From Octopus vulgaris (Eukaryota), in contig OX597817.1 of the NCBI GenBank assembly GCA_951406725.2, forward strand, positions 101,246,001-101,310,000: a stretch of DNA of 64,000 nucleotides, in the 5' to 3' direction. The position numbers and the translations under genes are program-made. Positions 11,083-61,072 of this stretch are shown piece after piece (positions within the stretch are counted from its first letter, which is position 1; every line of letters starts with the position of its first letter). Under the pieces are notes generated by a model. The model was not told where the DNA came from, made no database searches, and worked only from the letters and a program-made list of their open reading frames with translations.

Positions 11083-12133
11083 ACCTTTCTTCCAATGCTT
11101 GCTGTTCTCAATAGAGCAGATTTCTGAATGAATACAACTCTTTTAGTTACATCAATCTCAATAAGGGAGCTGTTAAGTTTATCGGTGACGTAGCCTAAGC
11201 ACCCATAACAACTGGCATTACTTTTGTAGAAACCCTCCATAATCGCCGTATTTCCCGAGCCAAATCCTGGTAATTTCCTATTTTCTCCTATACTTTGAAT
11301 GCTACATACATGTTCACAGATATAGCCACATCTATGATGGTGCTGTCCCTTTTCCCCTTGCCAAGAAATATTTCGTCTCTTAAAATTGTTGGCCTTGTGC
11401 CAAATTTGAAACGATTATCACATGACCCTATGTTATTTCAACATTGCTGTAGAAAAAGACGACAATATACCGTTAAAACTGAGGGATACAGTACCATTCA
11501 TTTTTGCAGAAAGGTGCTTGTCAACTTCGCCTACTGGAAACAGTTCAGTTAGAAGACGAAGACGGTCTGCGATTCCTATGCTGAGCTCTGAAGATTTCAA
11601 TATAAACATTATAAATGATTATTCGAAAGAATTATTTCCAAACGTGAGCGTATATTGAGGCTGCTTTTAACTCTTTCATTTTCACAGATAGTAGTTGTTG
11701 TATTTTACTTTATCAGCCGAATTAGCGTTATGACAAGAAGTAAATGTAAATCAATAATAGAAATATTAAAATTACTAAGTCTCTCTAAAAGAGAACACGG
11801 CAGCGTTCCTGGAAATTAATAGTTATCGCCATACTAATATGGCATTCTTGTTCGAAGGTTATATGGATACAGTTTGTGTATCAAATAGCTAACTTAAGGC
11901 GATGGCCTCATGGAGCTAATAAGCGGACAGCTTTATTCTTATTTTTATAAGAATGCCATATTAGTATGGCGATAACTATTAATTTCCAGGAACGCTGCCG
12001 TGTTCTCTTTTAGAGAGACTTAGTAATTTTAATATTTCTATTATTGAAAACAAGTGGACGTATTCCACCGAAACTAGGTAAATAAAACCTTCGAACAGAG
12101 ATAGTCGGAAGCGACACCTACTGGTCTGACTAC

Positions 12134-12175
12134 GCTACATTGACAAGGGGCAATACCCCGAAACGCGTCTGTAGC
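12134..12175 (+). ncRNA. Type I hammerhead ribozyme, U3:A8 core variant (copy 1)
   Basis: GCTACA TTGACAA GGGG CAATA CCCC GAAA CGCG TC TGTAGC: 6-bp stem I, 4-bp stem II, palindromic stem III, GUC triplet. Confidence 0.85.
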
Positions 12176-12495
12176 TGTCGATCAAGTAGTGTGGAGCGAC
12201 TGACCTCCCTTGTTCGAAGGTTATATGGATACAGTTTGTGTATCAAATAGCTAACTTAAGGCGATGGCCTCATGGAGTTAATAAGCGGACAGCTTTATTC
12301 TTATTTTTATAAGAATGCCATATTAGTATGGCGATAACTATTAATTTCCAGGAACGCTGCCGTGTTCTCTTTTAGAGAGACTTAGTAATTTTAATATTTC
12401 TATTATTGAAAACAAGTGGATGTATTCCACCGAAACTAGGTAAATAAAACCTTCGAACAGAGATAGTCGGAAGCGACACCTACTGGTCTGACTAC

Positions 12496-12537
12496 GCTAC
12501 ATTGACAAGGGGCAATACCCCGAAACGCGTCTGTAGC
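12496..12537 (+). ncRNA. Type I hammerhead ribozyme, U3:A8 core variant (copy 2)
   Basis: Identical to 12134-12175, 362 bp downstream. Confidence 0.85.
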
Positions 12538-13389
12538 TGTCGATCAAGTAGTGTGGAGCGACTGACCTCCCTTGTTCGAAGGTTATATGGATACAGTTTG
12601 TGTATCAAATAGCTAACTTAAGGCGATGGCCTCATGGAGCTAATAAGCGGACAGCTTTATTCTTATTTTTATAAGAATGCCATATTAGTATGGCGATAAC
12701 TATAAATGTAAATCGTATCGCAGCATTTCTTTGGTGCAATTTTGAATCAATGCTGCCTTTTCTGATCTAATGCACTAAGTCTATGTCTAACGAACACATC
12801 TTACACATAATCTTCCAGCTACACCGAGCATAGTTGTGATTAAATTTTCATCCCTGTCCAGCCTGGATTGAATTTCTTACCGGCTTTTCTTTGGGAAGGA
12901 TTTACCAACGCTAATCTCTGTTTAATTGCTGCAGAGGATTCACCAATTGTTCTATTACATGGTATGTCTAAAATAGTTTGACTTCAGCTGTACTTACAAA
13001 GTGATAGGTCATACATTAAAAATCGGTTTAAACCAATAATAACAGTAATTATTTTTGTTACATCCTTCGAAATAATTCAACTTACAGCTGTTCATCAAGA
13101 AAATTAGCCTTGTCTGTCTGTCTGACTGGTAGGGAGGTGTCTTCGAAAACATTGGGTACAGACAAAAATAAAAATTAAAGATTTAAAAGATTAGCAAGCT
13201 GCAGTTCAACCAAACAGACGAGCCGTAGAAGAACGGGTGGGACAAACGGTGATCATATAGCTCACCGTCAAGGAAACGCTACAGGTAACATAGCATCAGC
13301 GAATGTCTTGCGAATCAGCAGAAGAGTACGCGCTCCAGAAAGCAGAAGAGTACGCGCTCCAGAGGGTCAGACGTGAACTGGAGCAATGC

Positions 13390-27307: not shown

Positions 27308-27309
<2 letters not shown>

Positions 27310-27460
27310 AATAGTTATCGCCAAGCTAATATGGCAGTCCATAAATATAGGACGAACGGTAGCTTTCGTCCTATATTTATGGACTGCCATATTAGCTTGG
27401 CGATAACTATTAATGTCTAGTACCGCTGCCGTAGTCTCCTTTAGAGAGACTTAGAAATTA

Positions 27461-27463
<3 letters not shown>
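27308..27463. mobile_element. Foldback (49-bp perfect arms) plus tail, related to the 362-bp monomer
   Basis: Arms 27308-27356 and 27365-27413. GCCATATTAG..TGGCGATAACTATTAA..CGCTGCCGT..TTTAGAGAGACTTAG is shared with 11955-12023. Confidence 0.85.
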
Positions 27464-27520
<57 letters not shown>

Positions 27521-35566: not shown

Positions 35567-36105
35567 TTAAGATAGATTTAGTAATGGTCTAAAATAAAAT
35601 GGTGTATTTCTGGCCTTGTTTAACATGTCTTCGTATGTTGGGACTTGAAGTATATGACAATTTAAAGATTTTAATATGAGATGTTGTGGCATAAGATTAT
35701 ATCCAATATTGACTAAAAATATTTTACAATTAAGTTTTCTCAATTTACCGATTTCTTCAATGATATTAGGTGTGATAATATTTACAGATGAGTCAAAATA
35801 AATAACAACGTTGAAATGATCAGTACTCCTATTATTTAAATCTAGTTTTGATTGTATCGTCTGAGACATTTTGGAGATAACGGCTTCAAGATTAGAAACG
35901 TTTTTAGCAGTGTTAGTTACATTCAGTTTAGTTTCTGAGTGTATTGGGGTGAGTGGAATGCTGAAAGTCTGTGGGCAATATGGAAGTGCTACGATTTCGA
36001 AAGCTCCATATCCAGTATACGGGAGAAGAATCCTTATGAACTGATTGATCATTTTACCTCGGAGTGCTCCTATCGATAACAAATCGTAACCAAAACAAAC
36101 AGCAT
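35567..36105 (-). CDS. Last coding exon of the VWA-domain gene; degenerate VWA-like domain
   Basis: Acceptor TTTTCTTTACAG. Phase-1 entry continues as (N)AVCFGYDLLSIG..VVIYFD..KIFLVNIG..NLS* with no internal stop. Confidence 0.8.
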
Positions 36106-36460
36106 CTGTAAAGAAAATTGTTATATATTAGAAAAAGGTAAAACATCAGAAGTAAAACATGCATAAAGATTTAATAGTTTTAATAACAGCAGTGATATCT
36201 ATATACTGAGATAAAGGTTCTATGCACAGGTATTTAATCTTAAAAATCTGTGAGGATAGAATACTTTCCATCATATTTTTTTTATTTTAAAGTTTTTCCT
36301 AAACAAAAAAGTTTTGTGTTCATCTTCCCGACGCTATCTCTAGATGAAATAGCAACGTAACAGCCATTTTATTGTAAGATAGTATCGTGGAAACACTATG
36401 GTATTTGATTCTTAATCATTATCCCCTGACCTTATATTTTAGAACGTGAAATCAAATCTT

Positions 36461-41014: not shown

Positions 41015-42041
41015 CTGAAAGAAAATAAAACAAAATATTACGTTTATATCAAGAATATTTAAAACTCTGTTTTAAACTGTTTTTCTTCTTTTCTCATTTG
41101 CTCGTTTTTAATCATAAATGTACATGTTTTTAATATTGATCAGGTTTGAAGCCATGGAAACCATTTGGTATTCAAGTTCATTTGGGATCACATTGTATTG
41201 ACTACTGGAACAACTATTTCTCAGTCTCCTGTTTCAATCTTCATTAGTTGCATTCCTTTAAAATGAAATGCAATAGCATTGCAGTGTATAGATTTTCAGA
41301 CACTGGTAATACATTTTCTTTTAACTATGTATATTTTCAATTATACTGCAATATAATGTCTTCCATATAATGTCTTCCATATAATGTCTTCAAAATGTCT
41401 AAAGAGCCTACCAGTGTCAGATAATAACTATAGTTTCCTGTAGGAAAAGTGAAATACACCATACTGAATTTGATTAAACTTCTATCTCGTAGACAATCCA
41501 ATTTTCTTCTTCAAATCCTAATTAACATATGTACAGGCAACTCTTTCTAAACTTTTTAAGGTCATTTCTGGGTTATTTTTCTTCATCAGCACAGAACAAT
41601 TATTCTGCCGAACAATTATTTTGTGCTGATGAAGATAAATAACCCATAAATCACGATACACAGGTTTTGTTTTGAGCTGAGTAGGGTTGCTAGATTCCCT
41701 TGTTCGAAAATATAAGGACACAGATCGTGTCGTATAGCCAGCTGGAGACGATGTCTCCTGGGGCTAAATTACAGCAACGTTGATTCTAAATCAGGACTGC
41801 CATGTTATGTTGGCAAACAATCTTTACTGCATAAATTCCTGACAAAGAAAATACTTTTATATCAGAATTGAAGTAAACATCAGTCGACAAGAGTTAAGCT
41901 GTTGAAAACCGACGATAGCATTCTTTCAAATCACAGCTGAATCCATTTCAATTCGTTTATGCTAATAGCTCTTGACATATATCACAATCCTCACTCCTTT
42001 CTCCTACACATATAAAAGATTAAAATCGTTGATGAACGTAC

Positions 42042-43051: not shown

Positions 43052-43599
<548 letters not shown>

Positions 43600-43692
43600 G
43601 TTAATCCAAACCAGAAAACAAAAAACAACAACGCAAGGATGTGGAACAAATAAAGTATTATTGGACGCTCAGGAAAGAAGGGAAGAAGGAGG

Positions 43693-43727
43693 GTTTGACG
43701 TTTCGAGCGGAGCTCTTCGTCGGAAAC
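43693..43727 (-). ncRNA. Minimal type I hammerhead (U4C variant) at the Penelope 3' end
   Basis: Minus strand reads GTTT CCGACGA A GAGC TCC GCTC GAAA CG TC AAAC. Confidence 0.7.
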
Positions 43728-44069
43728 AGGAGAAAGAAACATCCCAAGATGGGAAGGACCGAGGAAAAAAAATTGCAGGTAGTCTACACGAGGTCACATG
43801 CTAAAAGGACGGAAGTGGTCAAAAGGAAGGAAGAGTGTTTTTTAATAACAAAAGAGCGGGTCAGAGACTGAATGGTAAAAGAGGTGTGCGAGATGACAAG
43901 GGTGTGTGTGTGGGTATGCGCGTGTGTGTGTATGTGTGTGTATGGTGGACGAGGCTACTAGCAGCAGTGGCGGAATGTTGGATGATGGCTGGTAGCAAGC
44001 AGTAGGGAATTAAGGAGTGGGTGGGGGTACGCTAGCAAGTTAGAGGATGGCGAGTAACTGTGCTTAGAC

Positions 44070-46700
44070 TTAGTGTATGTGTGCGTGTGTGCTTGTACGT
44101 GCGTGTGTGTGTATATATACGTATGTATGATTGTGTGCGAGTGTGCGAATGTCTGTGTGTCTGTGCTTATATGTGTGTACGTATGTGTATGTGTGCTTGC
44201 GCGTGGAGGTATATGTTGTGTGTATGTATATGTGTCGGTGTGTATGTGAATTAGTGGGTTTTTGTACGTCTGTATGTGTGTGTGCGTGTATTGTAATTAT
44301 ATGTGAATTTGTGCGCGTACGTGCATACATACACACACACACACTTACACACATACATACATACACACACACATACTTACATACACTCATACGGACACAC
44401 ATACACACATACATACACACACACATACCTACATACACACTCGCATGCATACGTACACACATGCATGCGGGAGTGAATGTATGTATGTGCGCGTGCGTAC
44501 AAATGTGTGTTTATATGTTTGCAAACATACGCACACACAAGCACACTCACACACTCACACACATATGCCCGCACACGTACATATATATGCACGCAAGGAC
44601 ACACTTCGCAACTTAAGGAAAGATGGAAAAGACTACCAGTGGTGCGGACGCATGCGAAACCGCAGGCCCACCCGCACAAGCGCAGGCGCGATCCCGAAAT
44701 AACGCCAGCCACCAAAAACGTGCGTGCATGCATGTGTGTATGTGTGCGTGCGCGCGCATGCATGTGTGTACGTGTGCATGCGAGTGTGTATGTAGGTATG
44801 TGTGTATGTATGTATGTGTGTATGTGTGAGTGTGTTGGTGTGTATGTCTGTGTGTATGTGTGTCCGTATGAGTGTATGTAAGTATGTGTGTATGTGTGTA
44901 TGTGTGCATGTGTGTATGTATGTATGTATGTATGTGTGTGTCTGTGTAAGTATGTGTGCATGCGTGTATGTGTGTGTATGTATGTATGTGTGCAAGCGTG
45001 TATGTGTGTATGTGTGTGTGTATGTATGTATGCATGCATGTGCGTATGTGTGTGTGTATGCATGTGTGTGTATGTGTGTGCATGTGTGTGTGTATGTATG
45101 TGTGTGTGCGTGTGTGTATATATGTATGTGTGTATGTATGTATGCGTGTGTGTATGTTTGTGTGTGTGTGTATGTATGTGGTATGTACGAATGAAAGTAT
45201 GAATGTATGTATGTATGTGTGTACGTATGTGTGTATGTGTGTGAATGTATGCGTGTGTGCGTGGGGGTGTACTCTGGAGCTGTGTGAGCGTAATGTATGT
45301 ATGTATGCGTGCGTGTGCGTGTGTGCGTGTGTGTATGTATGCGTGCGTATGTGGGTGTGTATGTGTGTATGTGTGTGTATGTGTGTATGTATGTATGTGT
45401 GAGTGTATGGGTGTATGTCTGTATGTATGTATGTCTTGTGTATGTATGTATGTGTGTGTGTGTATGTGTGTATGTGTGCAGGTATGGGCGTAATGTATGT
45501 ATGTATGTATGTATGTATGCGTGTGTGTGTGTATGTATGCGTGTGCGTGTGTATGTGGGTGTGTATGTATGTATGTATGCAAGTGTGTATGTGTGTATGT
45601 GTGCGTGTGTATGTGGGTGTGTATGTATGTACGTGTGTATGTATGTATATGTGAGTGTATGGATGTATGTCTGTACGTATGAGTGTATGGGTGTATGTCT
45701 GTACGTATGTATGTCTTGTGTATGTATGTATGTATTTGTGTGTGTATGTGTGTATGTGTGTATGTGTGTAGGTATGTATGTGTGTGTGTATGTGTGTATG
45801 TGTGTAAGTGTGTGTGCGTGTATGTATGTACGTGTGTATGTATGTATATGTGAGTGTATGGATGTATGTCTGTACGTATGAGTGTATGGGTGTATGTCTG
45901 TACGTATGTATGTCTTGTGTATGTATGTATGTATGTGTGTGTATGTGTGTGTATGTGTGTAGGTTTGTATGTGTGTGTGTATGTGTGTATGTGTGTAAGT
46001 GTGTGTGCGTGTATGTATGTAGGTAAGTATGTGTGCGCGCGTGCATGCAAGCATGTATGTGTGTATGTATGTATACACACGCCACACACACGCACACACA
46101 CACAACAACACACACACACACAACGCACGCATATGGGGCCGGCCGCACCCCAGGAGCGCTCCAACGCGCGCGATGCGCGCCCGCGGACCCACGCCCGCGG
46201 ACCCACGAACAGCCACACCAAAAAAACCGAACTCCATCAATCCCTCAACCAAAAACAGAAGAAAGGGCGTGCGCCTAGGTACAAACATATGCAGGTGTTG
46301 CGCGTAAACGCGCGCACGTGTGCATGCGCGTGTGTGCGTACGTATGTAGGTAAGTATGTATGTACGTATGTGTGCGTGCGCGTATGCGTGCACATGTATA
46401 TGTGTATGTGCCGCGTATGCGTGCACATGTATATGCTTATGGGCGTATGTGTGTGTGTATGCATGTGTGTATGTATGTATGTGTGTGTGCGTATGTATGT
46501 ATTTGTGTGTGTATGCGTGTGTGTATGTAGGTATGTGTGTACGTATGTGTGTATGTATGTATGTGTGTGTGTATGTGTATGTTTGTTTGTTTGTGTGTAT
46601 ATATGTGTGTATGTATGTGTGTATGTAGGTGTGTTGGAAGTAGGTATGTGTTTGTTTGTGTGTATACGTATGTATGTATGTATGTAGGTGTGTTGGAAGT
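44070..46700. repeat. 2.6-kb complex (TG/TATG)n array with internal duplications and strand flips
   Basis: Seen directly. ~44325-44470 is inverted relative to ~44755-44900. Confidence 0.9.
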
Positions 46701-48021
46701 GGGTATGTGGGGGGTGTTGAGAAAAAAGGTGGGTGGGAAGAGAGGTGGAGCGCAGACTAAGAGGAGGGGGCTGTGTTGAGTCCGTGTGGGGTAATGGTTT
46801 GTAAAGTGAAGATGAAGCGTTGCTCCAAGTGGAGCCTGGAATGCGGAAGACCGTTGTGTGGGGCGAGACCAAACACTGAGATGTCATCGGGGGAATGGTT
46901 GGCCGAGCAGAAGTGACGTGCGACGGGAGAAAGGGACCGTAGGCGAACATCCCTCAGATGTTCGGCGAATCGGTCAGACAAACGGCGTCCCGTCTGTCCT
47001 ATATACATCATTCCGCAAAGGTTGCATTTAATACAGTATATGAGGCCAGACGAAGTGCACGTAAAAGAATGTCTGATACGTACAGTTCGCTGGTTGGAGC
47101 TGGTGACAGCAGTGGTGTTGGTGATGAAGGGGCAGGTATTGCAGCGGGATCTAGAGCACGGGAAAGATCCGTGTGGGGCTGAGGGGGAAGAAGGGAGGGT
47201 GCTATGGACCAGGAGGTCGCGTAGATACCGAGCTCGTTTGAAGGTAAAATGGGGAAAATGGGGCGAGTCGTGGGATCGAGCTGGAGGCGACGGAAGGCAC
47301 GTAGTATCTTCCGACGAAGAGGTAGAGTAGAGGGGTGGAAAAGGAGGGGAAAGGGGGTGCGGTTGGGGGGGGGTGAGAGGAAGGGGGGGTGAGAGGAAGG
47401 TGGTGCGGTCGATGCGGCGGGCGCGGGCGAGGGCAATTGAGATTAGTGTAGGTGGGTATCCTCGGTGCCTGAACAGGCGGGCCAGGTATTGAGATTGGGT
47501 CTCGAAATCCTGGTCGCGGCTGCACAAACGTCGGAGGCGGAGGAACTGGGAGTATGGGATGGCCCGTTTGGTGTGGAAGGGGTGGGAGGAGGAGAAGTTG
47601 AGATAGAGGTGGGAATCCGTGGGTTTAAAGAAGGCGGAGGTGGTGAGAGAGTGAGAGGGGTGGTCGATGCAGAGAGAGATATCAAGAAAGTTGACAGAGG
47701 TGTTGGAGATGGTAGAAGTGAATTGTAGAGGGGGTGGAAGTTGGAGAGGAAAGAGATGAATTGGCTGAGAAGTTCGCAGGAAAGGGAGGTGGCGCCTATG
47801 CAGTCGTCTATATAGCGACCGTATAGTTCAGGGGTTGGTCCGGAGAATTTGGGAGAATACTTGGGCCTCAATATAGCCAAGAAAGAGATTGGCGAAATTA
47901 GGGCCCATTTTCGTTCCCATCGCGACCCCGGACACTTGTTGGTACGTTTTCCCGGCGAACGTGATACAGTTGAGGGTGAGGACGAGCTCAGCCAGGCGGA
48001 GAAGGGTGGGGGTCCTGGGGT

Positions 48022-48064
<43 letters not shown>

Positions 48065-48302
48065 AGCGAACTTCATAAAAAGTAGATTCTACCGTTGTTA
48101 ATGCTAGAGTTCAAATTTTGACAAAGCAATCACCACCATTTCCCTCTCAGTGTAGGTTTTATTGGCAAAACGTTTATAATATTGGCTAATCGACTGGTTT
48201 GAAGTATTGAGTAATGATTACAAATCTACGGCAAATGGGATTGCAAGCGTCGTGGAAACATTTTATGAAATAAATGTAATACAGTAATATCATTAACTTT
48301 AC

Positions 48303-48866
48303 CGTTGCACGTCTTTATATCAAGTCTCTGGGAAAGCTTTTCCAGCGCGTAATAGTCAGTTACTTGGTAGACATTTTCGTCAGGATCACTGGCAAGAGCT
48401 TTTAATTCTTCAACACTGTACTCTTTGCCAACACCTATTGCATAAACATTGATCCCAAGTTGATGAAGAGTTTTGGCTTCCTTTGCTGTTTTATTGGGTT
48501 GTCGTGAATGACCATCTGTTACAATTATTGCAATAAAAGGACCTGAACGTCTTTCAAGGACACTTTGCATTTCCTTTCTCAATAAAATAAGCGCTTTTGC
48601 AGTGTTGGTCGTTCCGCCTCGATAAGGAACGGCCAGAATAGCAGTTTTGAGATACTCTTTTGTAGTGAACTTGTTCAAGGAAATATCTAAATTCGCTCTG
48701 CTGCTGAAAGTTATCACGCCAACTTGAACGCTGTTTCCATCTGGTTTAATATCAAAGCTGTCTACTAGTTTGGTGACAAACTTTAATTGTCTCCGATAGT
48801 CTTCTACCCAAACACTACTTGAAGAGTCCAAGACAAATATGATACTAGCTGATTTTCCAGAACACC
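48303..48866 (-). CDS. von Willebrand factor A domain exon (matrilin/collagen-VI-like extracellular protein)
   Basis: CSGKSASIIFVLDSSSSV (MIDAS DxSxS), VQVGVITFS, GGTTNTAKAL, IIVTDG, VYAIGVG. 564 nt with AG/GT ends, phase 1-1. Confidence 0.92.
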
Positions 48867-49303
48867 CTACAATATATAATGATATTAATATAAATATATG
48901 CACATAGTAACGGAGAAAATATCTATATATAAATAAACGCATATTCATACAAACACACAAACCCACACATATTTGTATTTTTGCATACAAAAGAATTTAT
49001 TTTCTTATTGTGTGCAGATATACACAATATAATTATTTTACAATACATTAGTTTCATTATATAATGCCTCATATATTTGAATTTAAACAATTTCCCTGGG
49101 TAATTATCTTTTATCTTTTACTTGTTTCATGTATGTATGTATGTATGTATGTACATCTATAAAATGGGCTTCTATCAGTTTTCGTCTACCAAATCAACTC
49201 ACAAGACTTTGCCTAAAGTGTCGCGCTATGGCATTGATTTCAAGACCCTATGTCTAGGAAATAAGCTTCCTAAGAGAGCCACGCTTCATCCCATGTCTAT
49301 GTA

Positions 49304-60562: not shown

Positions 60563-60600
<38 letters not shown>

Positions 60601-60602
<2 letters not shown>

Positions 60603-61071
60603 CAATAATAAATCTCTGAACGAGATGTAAACAGTAACCGCTCGACAACGTAAAGTATAGTAGCCATCTCAATATGGCTAACCACAAAGGGTGGGTGTTA
60701 CTGTAGCTTTTAGCCCCAGGAGATCATCGTCTCCAGCTGGCCTTTAGACACACTTTCTGTGCCCTTATGATATTTGCAAAGGGAGGTCATCCCTCTCTCG
60801 TAAACCTAAGTGATACGCACGGACTGCAGTTTCGAGGTAATTTGCCTCTTGTCAACGTACGGTAATCACCAGTTTTCGATGACGAGAGACCTGTTTGCGA
60901 ATATCTATTTAATGTTTTTCCCAGTAACCAATGTCACTGATTTCGAAAAACTGTCTGAAAGCAATAATAAATCTCTGAACGCGATGTAAACAGTAACCGC
61001 TCGACAACGTAAAGTATACTAGCCATCTCTATATGGCTAACCACAAAGGGTGGGTGTTACTGTAGCTTTTA

Positions 61072-61072
<1 letters not shown>
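60601..61072 (-). mobile_element. Retrozyme-like element: 359-bp monomer plus 113-bp direct repeat, in (TA)n
   Basis: 60601-60713 is repeated at 60960-61072 (3 mismatches seen). HHR at 60816-60861. Confidence 0.85.
60816..60861 (-). ncRNA. Type I hammerhead ribozyme, U3:A8 core variant
   Basis: Minus strand reads CGTACG TTGACAA GAGG CAAATTA CCTC GAAA CTGCAG TC CGTGCG. Confidence 0.8.

Follow-up and report, generated by a model that had tools for sequence, protein, structure and literature searches.

A putative non-LTR retrozyme of Octopus vulgaris with Penelope-like insertion ends

The element at positions 11741-12714 of the stretch of Octopus vulgaris DNA analysed here (64 kb in length, hereafter referred to as the window) is a real, young member of a new family within a known class, the animal non-LTR retrozymes. 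We consider it quite probable that it represents a recent retrozyme insertion written by the reverse transcriptase (RT) and GIY-YIG endonuclease of a Penelope-like element (PLE), which would have primed on both strands of a staggered cut, probably on a circular RNA. Copies of this family end at two fixed sites, one per side, as PLEs of the same genome do, and the retrozyme is therefore likely copied by a borrowed Penelope-like enzyme.

PLE mobilization of animal retrozymes has already been proposed (Cervera and de la Pena, 2020, PMC7229834; Li et al., 2026, bioRxiv 10.64898/2026.07.22.740005), and in the available parts of these reports the case is built on co-occurrence and, in Xenopus, on sequence similarity, not on insertion anatomy, although the supplements of Li et al. 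may list insertion features. The present analysis adds statistics on copy ends, which link a retrozyme to double priming by a PLE, as well as candidate new-born arrays; for the window family, there is a PLE footprint on >100 retrozyme insertions, with two nucleotide-level start sites, a 12-nt stagger, and long-ORF candidate enzymes in the same genome. Neither the family nor the rule of one end each was found in print, in a literature search outside which most subscription papers fell, and repeat libraries may already contain the unit without a name. The available text of a 2026 octopus repeat annotation makes no mention of ribozymes (PMC13282606). A preliminary description of this DNA had taken the element for an undescribed family, which holds for the family but not for the class, as non-LTR retrozymes are known (PMC7229834, in its available part).

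Structure of the window element

The element is bounded by a 12-bp target site duplication (TSD), TAAATGTAAATC, with copies at 11741 and 12703 and nowhere else in the window; the chance of such a 12-mer match near both junctions is roughly 1.5e-4. The long arm on the plus strand (11847-12702, 856 bp) consists of 2.36 tandem copies of a 362-bp unit (99% match), with units 1 and 2 differing only at 11916/12278 and 12059/12421. The unit has a GC content of 0.41, no LTR, and no ORF (the longest stop-free frame in a dimer is 54 codons, and the longest from an ATG is 21). A descriptor scan found two identical type I hammerheads on the plus strand, at 12134-12175 and 12496-12537, each with a 6-bp helix I, a U3-A8 core variant, a 4-bp helix II, and a palindromic 6-nt helix III. 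Cuts are predicted after C12169 and C12531, which would delimit a 362-nt unit (12170-12531, plus strand). The TSD, the ~2.4 monomers with two substitutions, and the single hammerhead per full, ORF-less monomer thus all agree with the preliminary description.

That description further included a 99-bp inverted head. The inverted match itself (11751-11849) is sound, being 100% reverse-complementary to unit positions m103-201 (where m1 is 11847), but 2 nt of it belong to the left TSD copy (11741-11752, plus strand) and 3 nt (11847-11849) are common to the long arm. The short arm proper spans 11753-11849 on the minus strand (unit ~m103-199, with RNA sense on that strand) and meets the long arm head-to-head at 11847-11849 through a 3-nt microhomology. 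Both arms have outer ends that are fixed across the family, the short arm at a site referred to here as S2 (m198-201, at 12044-12047 and again at 12406-12409, plus strand), and the long arm, at m132-137, at a site referred to as S1 (m133-137, at 11979-11983 and again at 12341-12345, plus strand), directly 3' of a conserved hairpin. S1 and S2 are putative RT start sites, and the interval of ~62-65 nt between them would correspond to a PLE-type "tail". The last 2 nt of the left TSD copy also match the unit just past S2 (2-3 nt of microhomology on this side), and the first 5 nt of the right copy (12703-12714, plus strand) match m133-137 at 4 of 5 positions, both suggestive of microhomology used in priming. 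Given the fixed outer ends, this microhomology at S2 and S1 on the TSD sides, and the 3-nt arm junction, the "head" is therefore better read as one of two target-primed 3' ends.

Both junctions are spanned by contigs of all three large sequencing runs (X15, X16, and X17), and the window element is therefore not an assembly artefact. Runs X15 and X16 belong to one study, perhaps of the source sample, and X17, which differs by a few letters in the flanks, to a second; loose (AT)n ends occur at 11754 and 12044 in the X15 contigs. No RNA run was listed among those containing the element, and contigs of run X1, perhaps from RNA, were left out of account for expression. Among the joints listed from the run contigs (15 of 30), none skips the element to give an empty site. 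The right flank is single copy, and there is therefore no paralogous empty site. Since the window copy carries two near-private changes, it is among the youngest of its family.

Dispersed copies and their two 3' ends

The preliminary description had supposed a dispersed and recently active family, and both suppositions are borne out in the assembly (2.8 Gb, 227 contigs). A search with the unit gave 1956 first-look candidates, of which 40 were scored, with full-length matches at 96-100%, and a 29-nt hammerhead core had 228 exact matches, vs 0 for a control. We fetched 120 loci and dropped 13 duplicates, leaving 107 distinct insertions. The best full-length matches supplied 34 of them, and the other 73 were drawn from the first 100 entries in the list of 228 core matches; the sample is biased in favor of full-length or hammerhead-intact copies. 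They fall into a young subfamily (>96%, n = 40) and an older one (~87%, n = 67). Head-to-head arms are found in 72 insertions, a single arm in 34, and a complex layout in one.

The 3' ends of the arms are concentrated at the two sites. Among 181 arm 3' ends, 85 lie at S1 (m126-143) and 84 at S2 (m192-206), so that 169/181 are at one or the other and only 12 elsewhere. In the 72 head-to-head copies the combinations are 61 S1+S2, two S1+S1, and no S2+S2, with nine copies having an unclassed end. Where both ends could be assigned (63 copies), 61 thus obey the rule of one end each (p = 2e-16 under a free choice of site). Either of the two arms may be the longer. The preliminary description had suggested a survey for circularly permuted start points; the outer ends are fixed, and it is the inner breakpoints that vary. 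The latter (n = 179) cluster at m354-m9 (35/179), m221-240, and m151-170, which are predicted stems.

Target sites are AT-rich, with (TA)n on at least one side in 79/107 insertions. The 28 insertions with no TA flank include 13 with a 12-14-nt duplication (exactly 12 nt in 8 of these), and the other 15 comprise three in simple repeats, two with 9-10 nt, and ten with ≤6 nt. The units and arms of a given young insertion have variants in common, divergence being 0.87% within an arm, 1.32% between the arms of one insertion, and 1.8% between young insertions; in the older subfamily the within-arm value (2.69%) is close to that between insertions (3.22%). The window itself holds a small head-to-head older relative (81-85%) at 27308-27472, lying between two (TA)n runs and ending at m136 and m195, and older fragments detected by a family profile at 41684-41828 (E 9e-19) and 240-420 (E 6e-4).

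In the mechanism we propose, a multimeric copy would be transcribed, and pairs of its hammerheads would form a dimeric helix III and cut, giving 362-nt units that a host ligase would close into circles. A PLE protein, which with somewhat better than even confidence we take to be of the Hydra type, would nick both strands of AT-rich DNA, in most cases (TA)n, with an offset of 12 nt, and one 3' end would prime at S1 and the other at S2 via 2-5 nt of microhomology. Both cDNAs would run round the template, in many cases passing the hammerhead repeatedly, and would be joined head-to-head, often at RNA stems, with repair leaving the TSD. In the window copy, the plus strand would have been primed at S2 and extended for 97 nt, and the minus strand at S1 for 856 nt. 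On a further reading, which we hold at rather less than even confidence, the strict S1/S2 rule would show that a PLE enzyme dimer primes each target strand at a different site of a single RNA circle, which it copies in a rolling fashion, and the PLE tail, the inverted pLTR, and the retrozyme multimers would be explained by one mechanism. How PLEs build tandem and inverted ends is regarded as unresolved in the literature, and would be testable in vitro with the 362-nt RNA.

Hammerhead, fold and the form of the template

A U3-A8 hammerhead core should retain activity. A relaxed U3-A8 pattern has 661 matches in the genome vs 0 in a control. In its available text, PMC4209133 treats U3-A8 as a natural covariation and describes short palindromic helices III as cleaving in the form of dimers, while PMC3088659 has no passage on U3-A8. 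The 6-bp helix I, 4-bp helix II, and short palindromic helix III are like those of the newt and axolotl satellite-2 hammerheads, which need a dimer (available parts of PMC4209133 and PMC7229834), and on this model cleavage of the window hammerheads should need a dimer as well. According to the same parts of these sources, the U3-A8 covariation has been reported in Schistosoma PLE hammerheads; here it is fixed across at least three tandem families. Rfam returned 0 matches for the hammerhead at gathering score; an RT-2 match of 20.8 bits, vs a cut-off of 40, was rejected as chance. No tRNA gene or origin was found for the unit, and the hammerhead pattern is absent from the viral contigs searched.

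The 362-nt unit is predicted to fold as a branched rod with both ends paired (circular MFE -115 kcal/mol), at z -6.7 (linear) and -7.4 (circular) relative to shuffles, and helix I is predicted to form in 10/11 natural units. Two sister families, tentatively referred to as B and C next to the window family (A), appear from the alignment to keep this fold by compensatory changes despite an identity of ~53%. Both helices I and II covary across the families, helix III takes several sequences that are palindromic in most of the variants listed, and 13/37 consensus pairs are changed on both sides among A, B, and C. The proportion of pairing cells across the three families is 95.8%, vs 32-47% when the structure is slid, on a basis of 11 units from four lineages and with a structure derived from the same alignment. 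Family B has a 359-bp unit, 53% identical to that of the window, and 3353 candidates; family C has units of 358-359 bp. The ends of family B lie ~46 nt apart, and 12 of 30 loci tallied (from 31) have two 3' ends, six being S1+S2 and six including an unclassed end. A single-arm family B copy of 1.3 units, with a U3-A8 hammerhead, lies in (TA)n at 60593-61072 of the window (minus strand).

Because 29/181 arms pass through the cut site two times or more (maximum arm length 2000 nt), the template must have been a circle or an uncleaved multimer, and we regard a circle as likely. An unlikely alternative is that a PLE copies uncleaved linear multimers transcribed from existing tandem copies, with no circle formed and the hammerhead a weak or inactive passenger. 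It would agree with the inner breakpoints, of which 9/179 fall at m318-330, around the cut site, vs ~6.4 expected (p = 0.2); in the lack of such enrichment, the copies give no sign of in vivo cleavage. It would also agree with the available text of PMC11167929, in which hammerhead mutants have no effect on in vitro insertion and unprocessed RNA is the main substrate for one PLE, and with that of a study in which 8/9 Xenopus retrozyme dimers remained uncleaved in vitro (bioRxiv 10.64898/2026.07.22.740005). However, if no circle is formed, each new copy can only have arms as long as those of its donor or shorter, yet multimers are found in every lineage sampled. Helices I and II also covary, and helix III stays palindromic, across families that are ~53% identical. 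A few arms begin at or near the predicted cut (loci L015, L189, L194, L195, L206, L222, L248, and L249); these may have arisen by run-off on cleaved RNA or by folding back via the helices.

Also at odds with linear templates are two ORF-less head-to-head arrays yielded by the hammerhead-bearing end of a Hydra-type PLE family of this genome, referred to as H3 below. The units of each array are a contiguous piece of that end. The first (G000:C5:37481400-37489300; L282 and L283) has 24 units of 333 bp in arms of ~20 and ~3.5 units, with a garbled unit at its center that may be an assembly error, and the second (G000:C2:64628300-64632200; L284) has ~13 units of 277 bp in arms of ~6 and ~7.5 units. 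Units in both are 99-100% identical, and both arrays have S1-like and S2-like ends and lie in (TA)n. Long arrays in both arms of one insertion, as in the second, would be easiest to explain by rolling copying. The array units fold no better than shuffles (z -1.1 and -1.5, vs -7.4 for the 362-nt unit). By their sequence, the arrays are candidate new-born retrozymes. We tentatively suggest, as a possibility we hold at rather less than even confidence, that Hydra-type PLEs may serve retrozymes of all ages in this genome, from newly born, unstructured 13-24-unit arrays of 277 or 333 bp, cut from an active PLE, to old 357-365-nt families that have lost any likeness to a parent but retain a selected circular fold and both start sites.

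Penelope-like elements and related systems

The preliminary description had pointed to a Penelope-like RT/GIY-YIG enzyme as the mobilizer, such as the one at 46757-48023 of the window. The general proposal is now much more strongly supported, by the two fixed ends with one on each side, but that particular PLE fits less well. It is part of a 5'-truncated and frameshifted element of the Neptune type (43594-48023, minus strand) with (TA)n at both ends. The 3' region at this locus is 3 kb long and microsatellite-like, with a minimal hammerhead (core C-C-G-A) near 43727-43696.

Besides Neptune, Hydra-type PLEs were recognized in the genome by their DKT and CxCx5C motifs; Pfam gave no PLE family above cut-off, and the clade names rest on motifs compared with the available text of PMC8557442. 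At least three Hydra-type families are present, namely H3 (L111-L119, L285-L297), H1 (L082-L110, L328-L352), and H2 (L116, L121-L130), the last with a cluster at G000:C30:20-21 Mb. Family H3 is young and has many near-identical copies, with open frames of up to 718 aa. Counted from the H3 hammerhead, the ends are at +61 on one side and +134 on the other in 7/7 insertions with both ends visible; those of H1 lie at ~+119 and ~+231 in 8/8 insertions, where the long end was selected by the query. The corresponding tails, 73 nt in H3 and ~112 nt in H1, are longer than the reported 30-40 nt.

Hydra-type PLEs therefore fit the two-end signature better than Neptune does. Mobilization by the abundant Neptune family, or by a LINE through ordinary twin priming, seems decidedly improbable to us. 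Neptune would be an obvious source of enzyme, with 34036 candidates, many long open frames, (TA)n ends, and a minimal hammerhead, and LINE fragments are common in the window. Nevertheless, Neptune 3' ends form a single cluster, at +118 to +125 in 29/30 loci (an end that the query favored), and have no sequence in common with the unit. LINE twin priming begins at a poly(A) 3' end, which the retrozyme copies lack, and is not known to use two fixed internal sites, one per side. Inverted arms, internal tandem units, and a TSD might also suggest an element moving at the DNA level (foldback or MITE-like) or recombinational amplification of a minisatellite. We regard this as very improbable, being contradicted by the end statistics (S1 and S2 ends that differ, inner ends truncated at many positions), by the 34/107 single-armed copies, and by an RNA structure kept through compensatory change.

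The Hydra-type PLEs favored here as mobilizers have no evident kinship with the unit in sequence. Comparison of the unit with H1, H2, H3, and others found no common sequence, and local alignments with H3, H1, and two Neptune ends scored at shuffle level. A profile search of 176 PLE loci (829 kb of Neptune and Hydra-type elements) found only scattered nested insertions. Within these loci the window family contrasts with the 24/57 Xenopus families that have a homologous PLE end (bioRxiv 10.64898/2026.07.22.740005, available part). Family B pieces beside some Hydra copies were considered as homology and rejected, as they look like nested insertions. PLE coding sequence occurs in the flanks of 3/80 loci outside the Neptune set and of two rows among L137-L251, at no common position.

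The window family has every sequence-testable feature of animal non-LTR retrozymes as given in the available parts of Cervera and de la Pena (2020, PMC7229834) and Li et al. (2026, bioRxiv 10.64898/2026.07.22.740005). These are units of 150-450 bp (350-390 bp in mussels and 362 bp here) that are repeated in tandem and carry a type I hammerhead apiece, no ORF, LTR, PBS, or PPT, GC <50% (here 41%), a TSD of >4 bp, and a predicted circle that pairs with itself yet leaves the hammerhead free to form. It differs from them in its U3-A8 core. Head-to-head arms with two fixed starts are not described for animal retrozymes in the available texts, and the word "inverted" occurs 0 times in that of PMC7229834. 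A plant LTR retrozyme, with a type III hammerhead in LTRs and a 4-bp TSD, was rejected, the hammerhead here being type I, the TSD 12 bp, and LTRs absent.

The insertion features are those of endonuclease-bearing PLEs. For one such element, the protein cuts and extends both strands of AT-rich DNA, and two internal RNA starts bound the genomic tail (PMC11167929, available part). Truncated PLE copies in inverted orientation, with a tail on one side, are also reported, as is insertion into (TA)n by Hydra and Naiad elements (PMC8557442 and PMC3846280, available parts). The window family resembles these PLEs in its two internal 3' ends, its inverted head-to-head copies with a tail on one side only, and its AT-rich or (TA)n targets. 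According to the same sources, its TSD of 12 bp compares with 8-10 bp in these PLEs and its tail of ~62-65 nt with 30-40 nt, and unlike them it has a precise 362-bp period running through both start sites; as the unit lacks an RT + GIY-YIG ORF, an autonomous PLE was rejected. With Hydra-clade PLEs (available part of PMC8557442; H1 and H3 here) it shares the (TA)n target, a hammerhead near the 3' end, and head-to-head insertions that pair a short end with a long one, whereas the hammerheads of H1 and H3 have the canonical C3-G8 core.

Exon-like frames of a host gene were also seen on the minus strand of the window. One, at 48226-48996, matches Pfam VWA (E 2e-34), and the other, at 35567-36127, resembles it by eye but has no convincing match.
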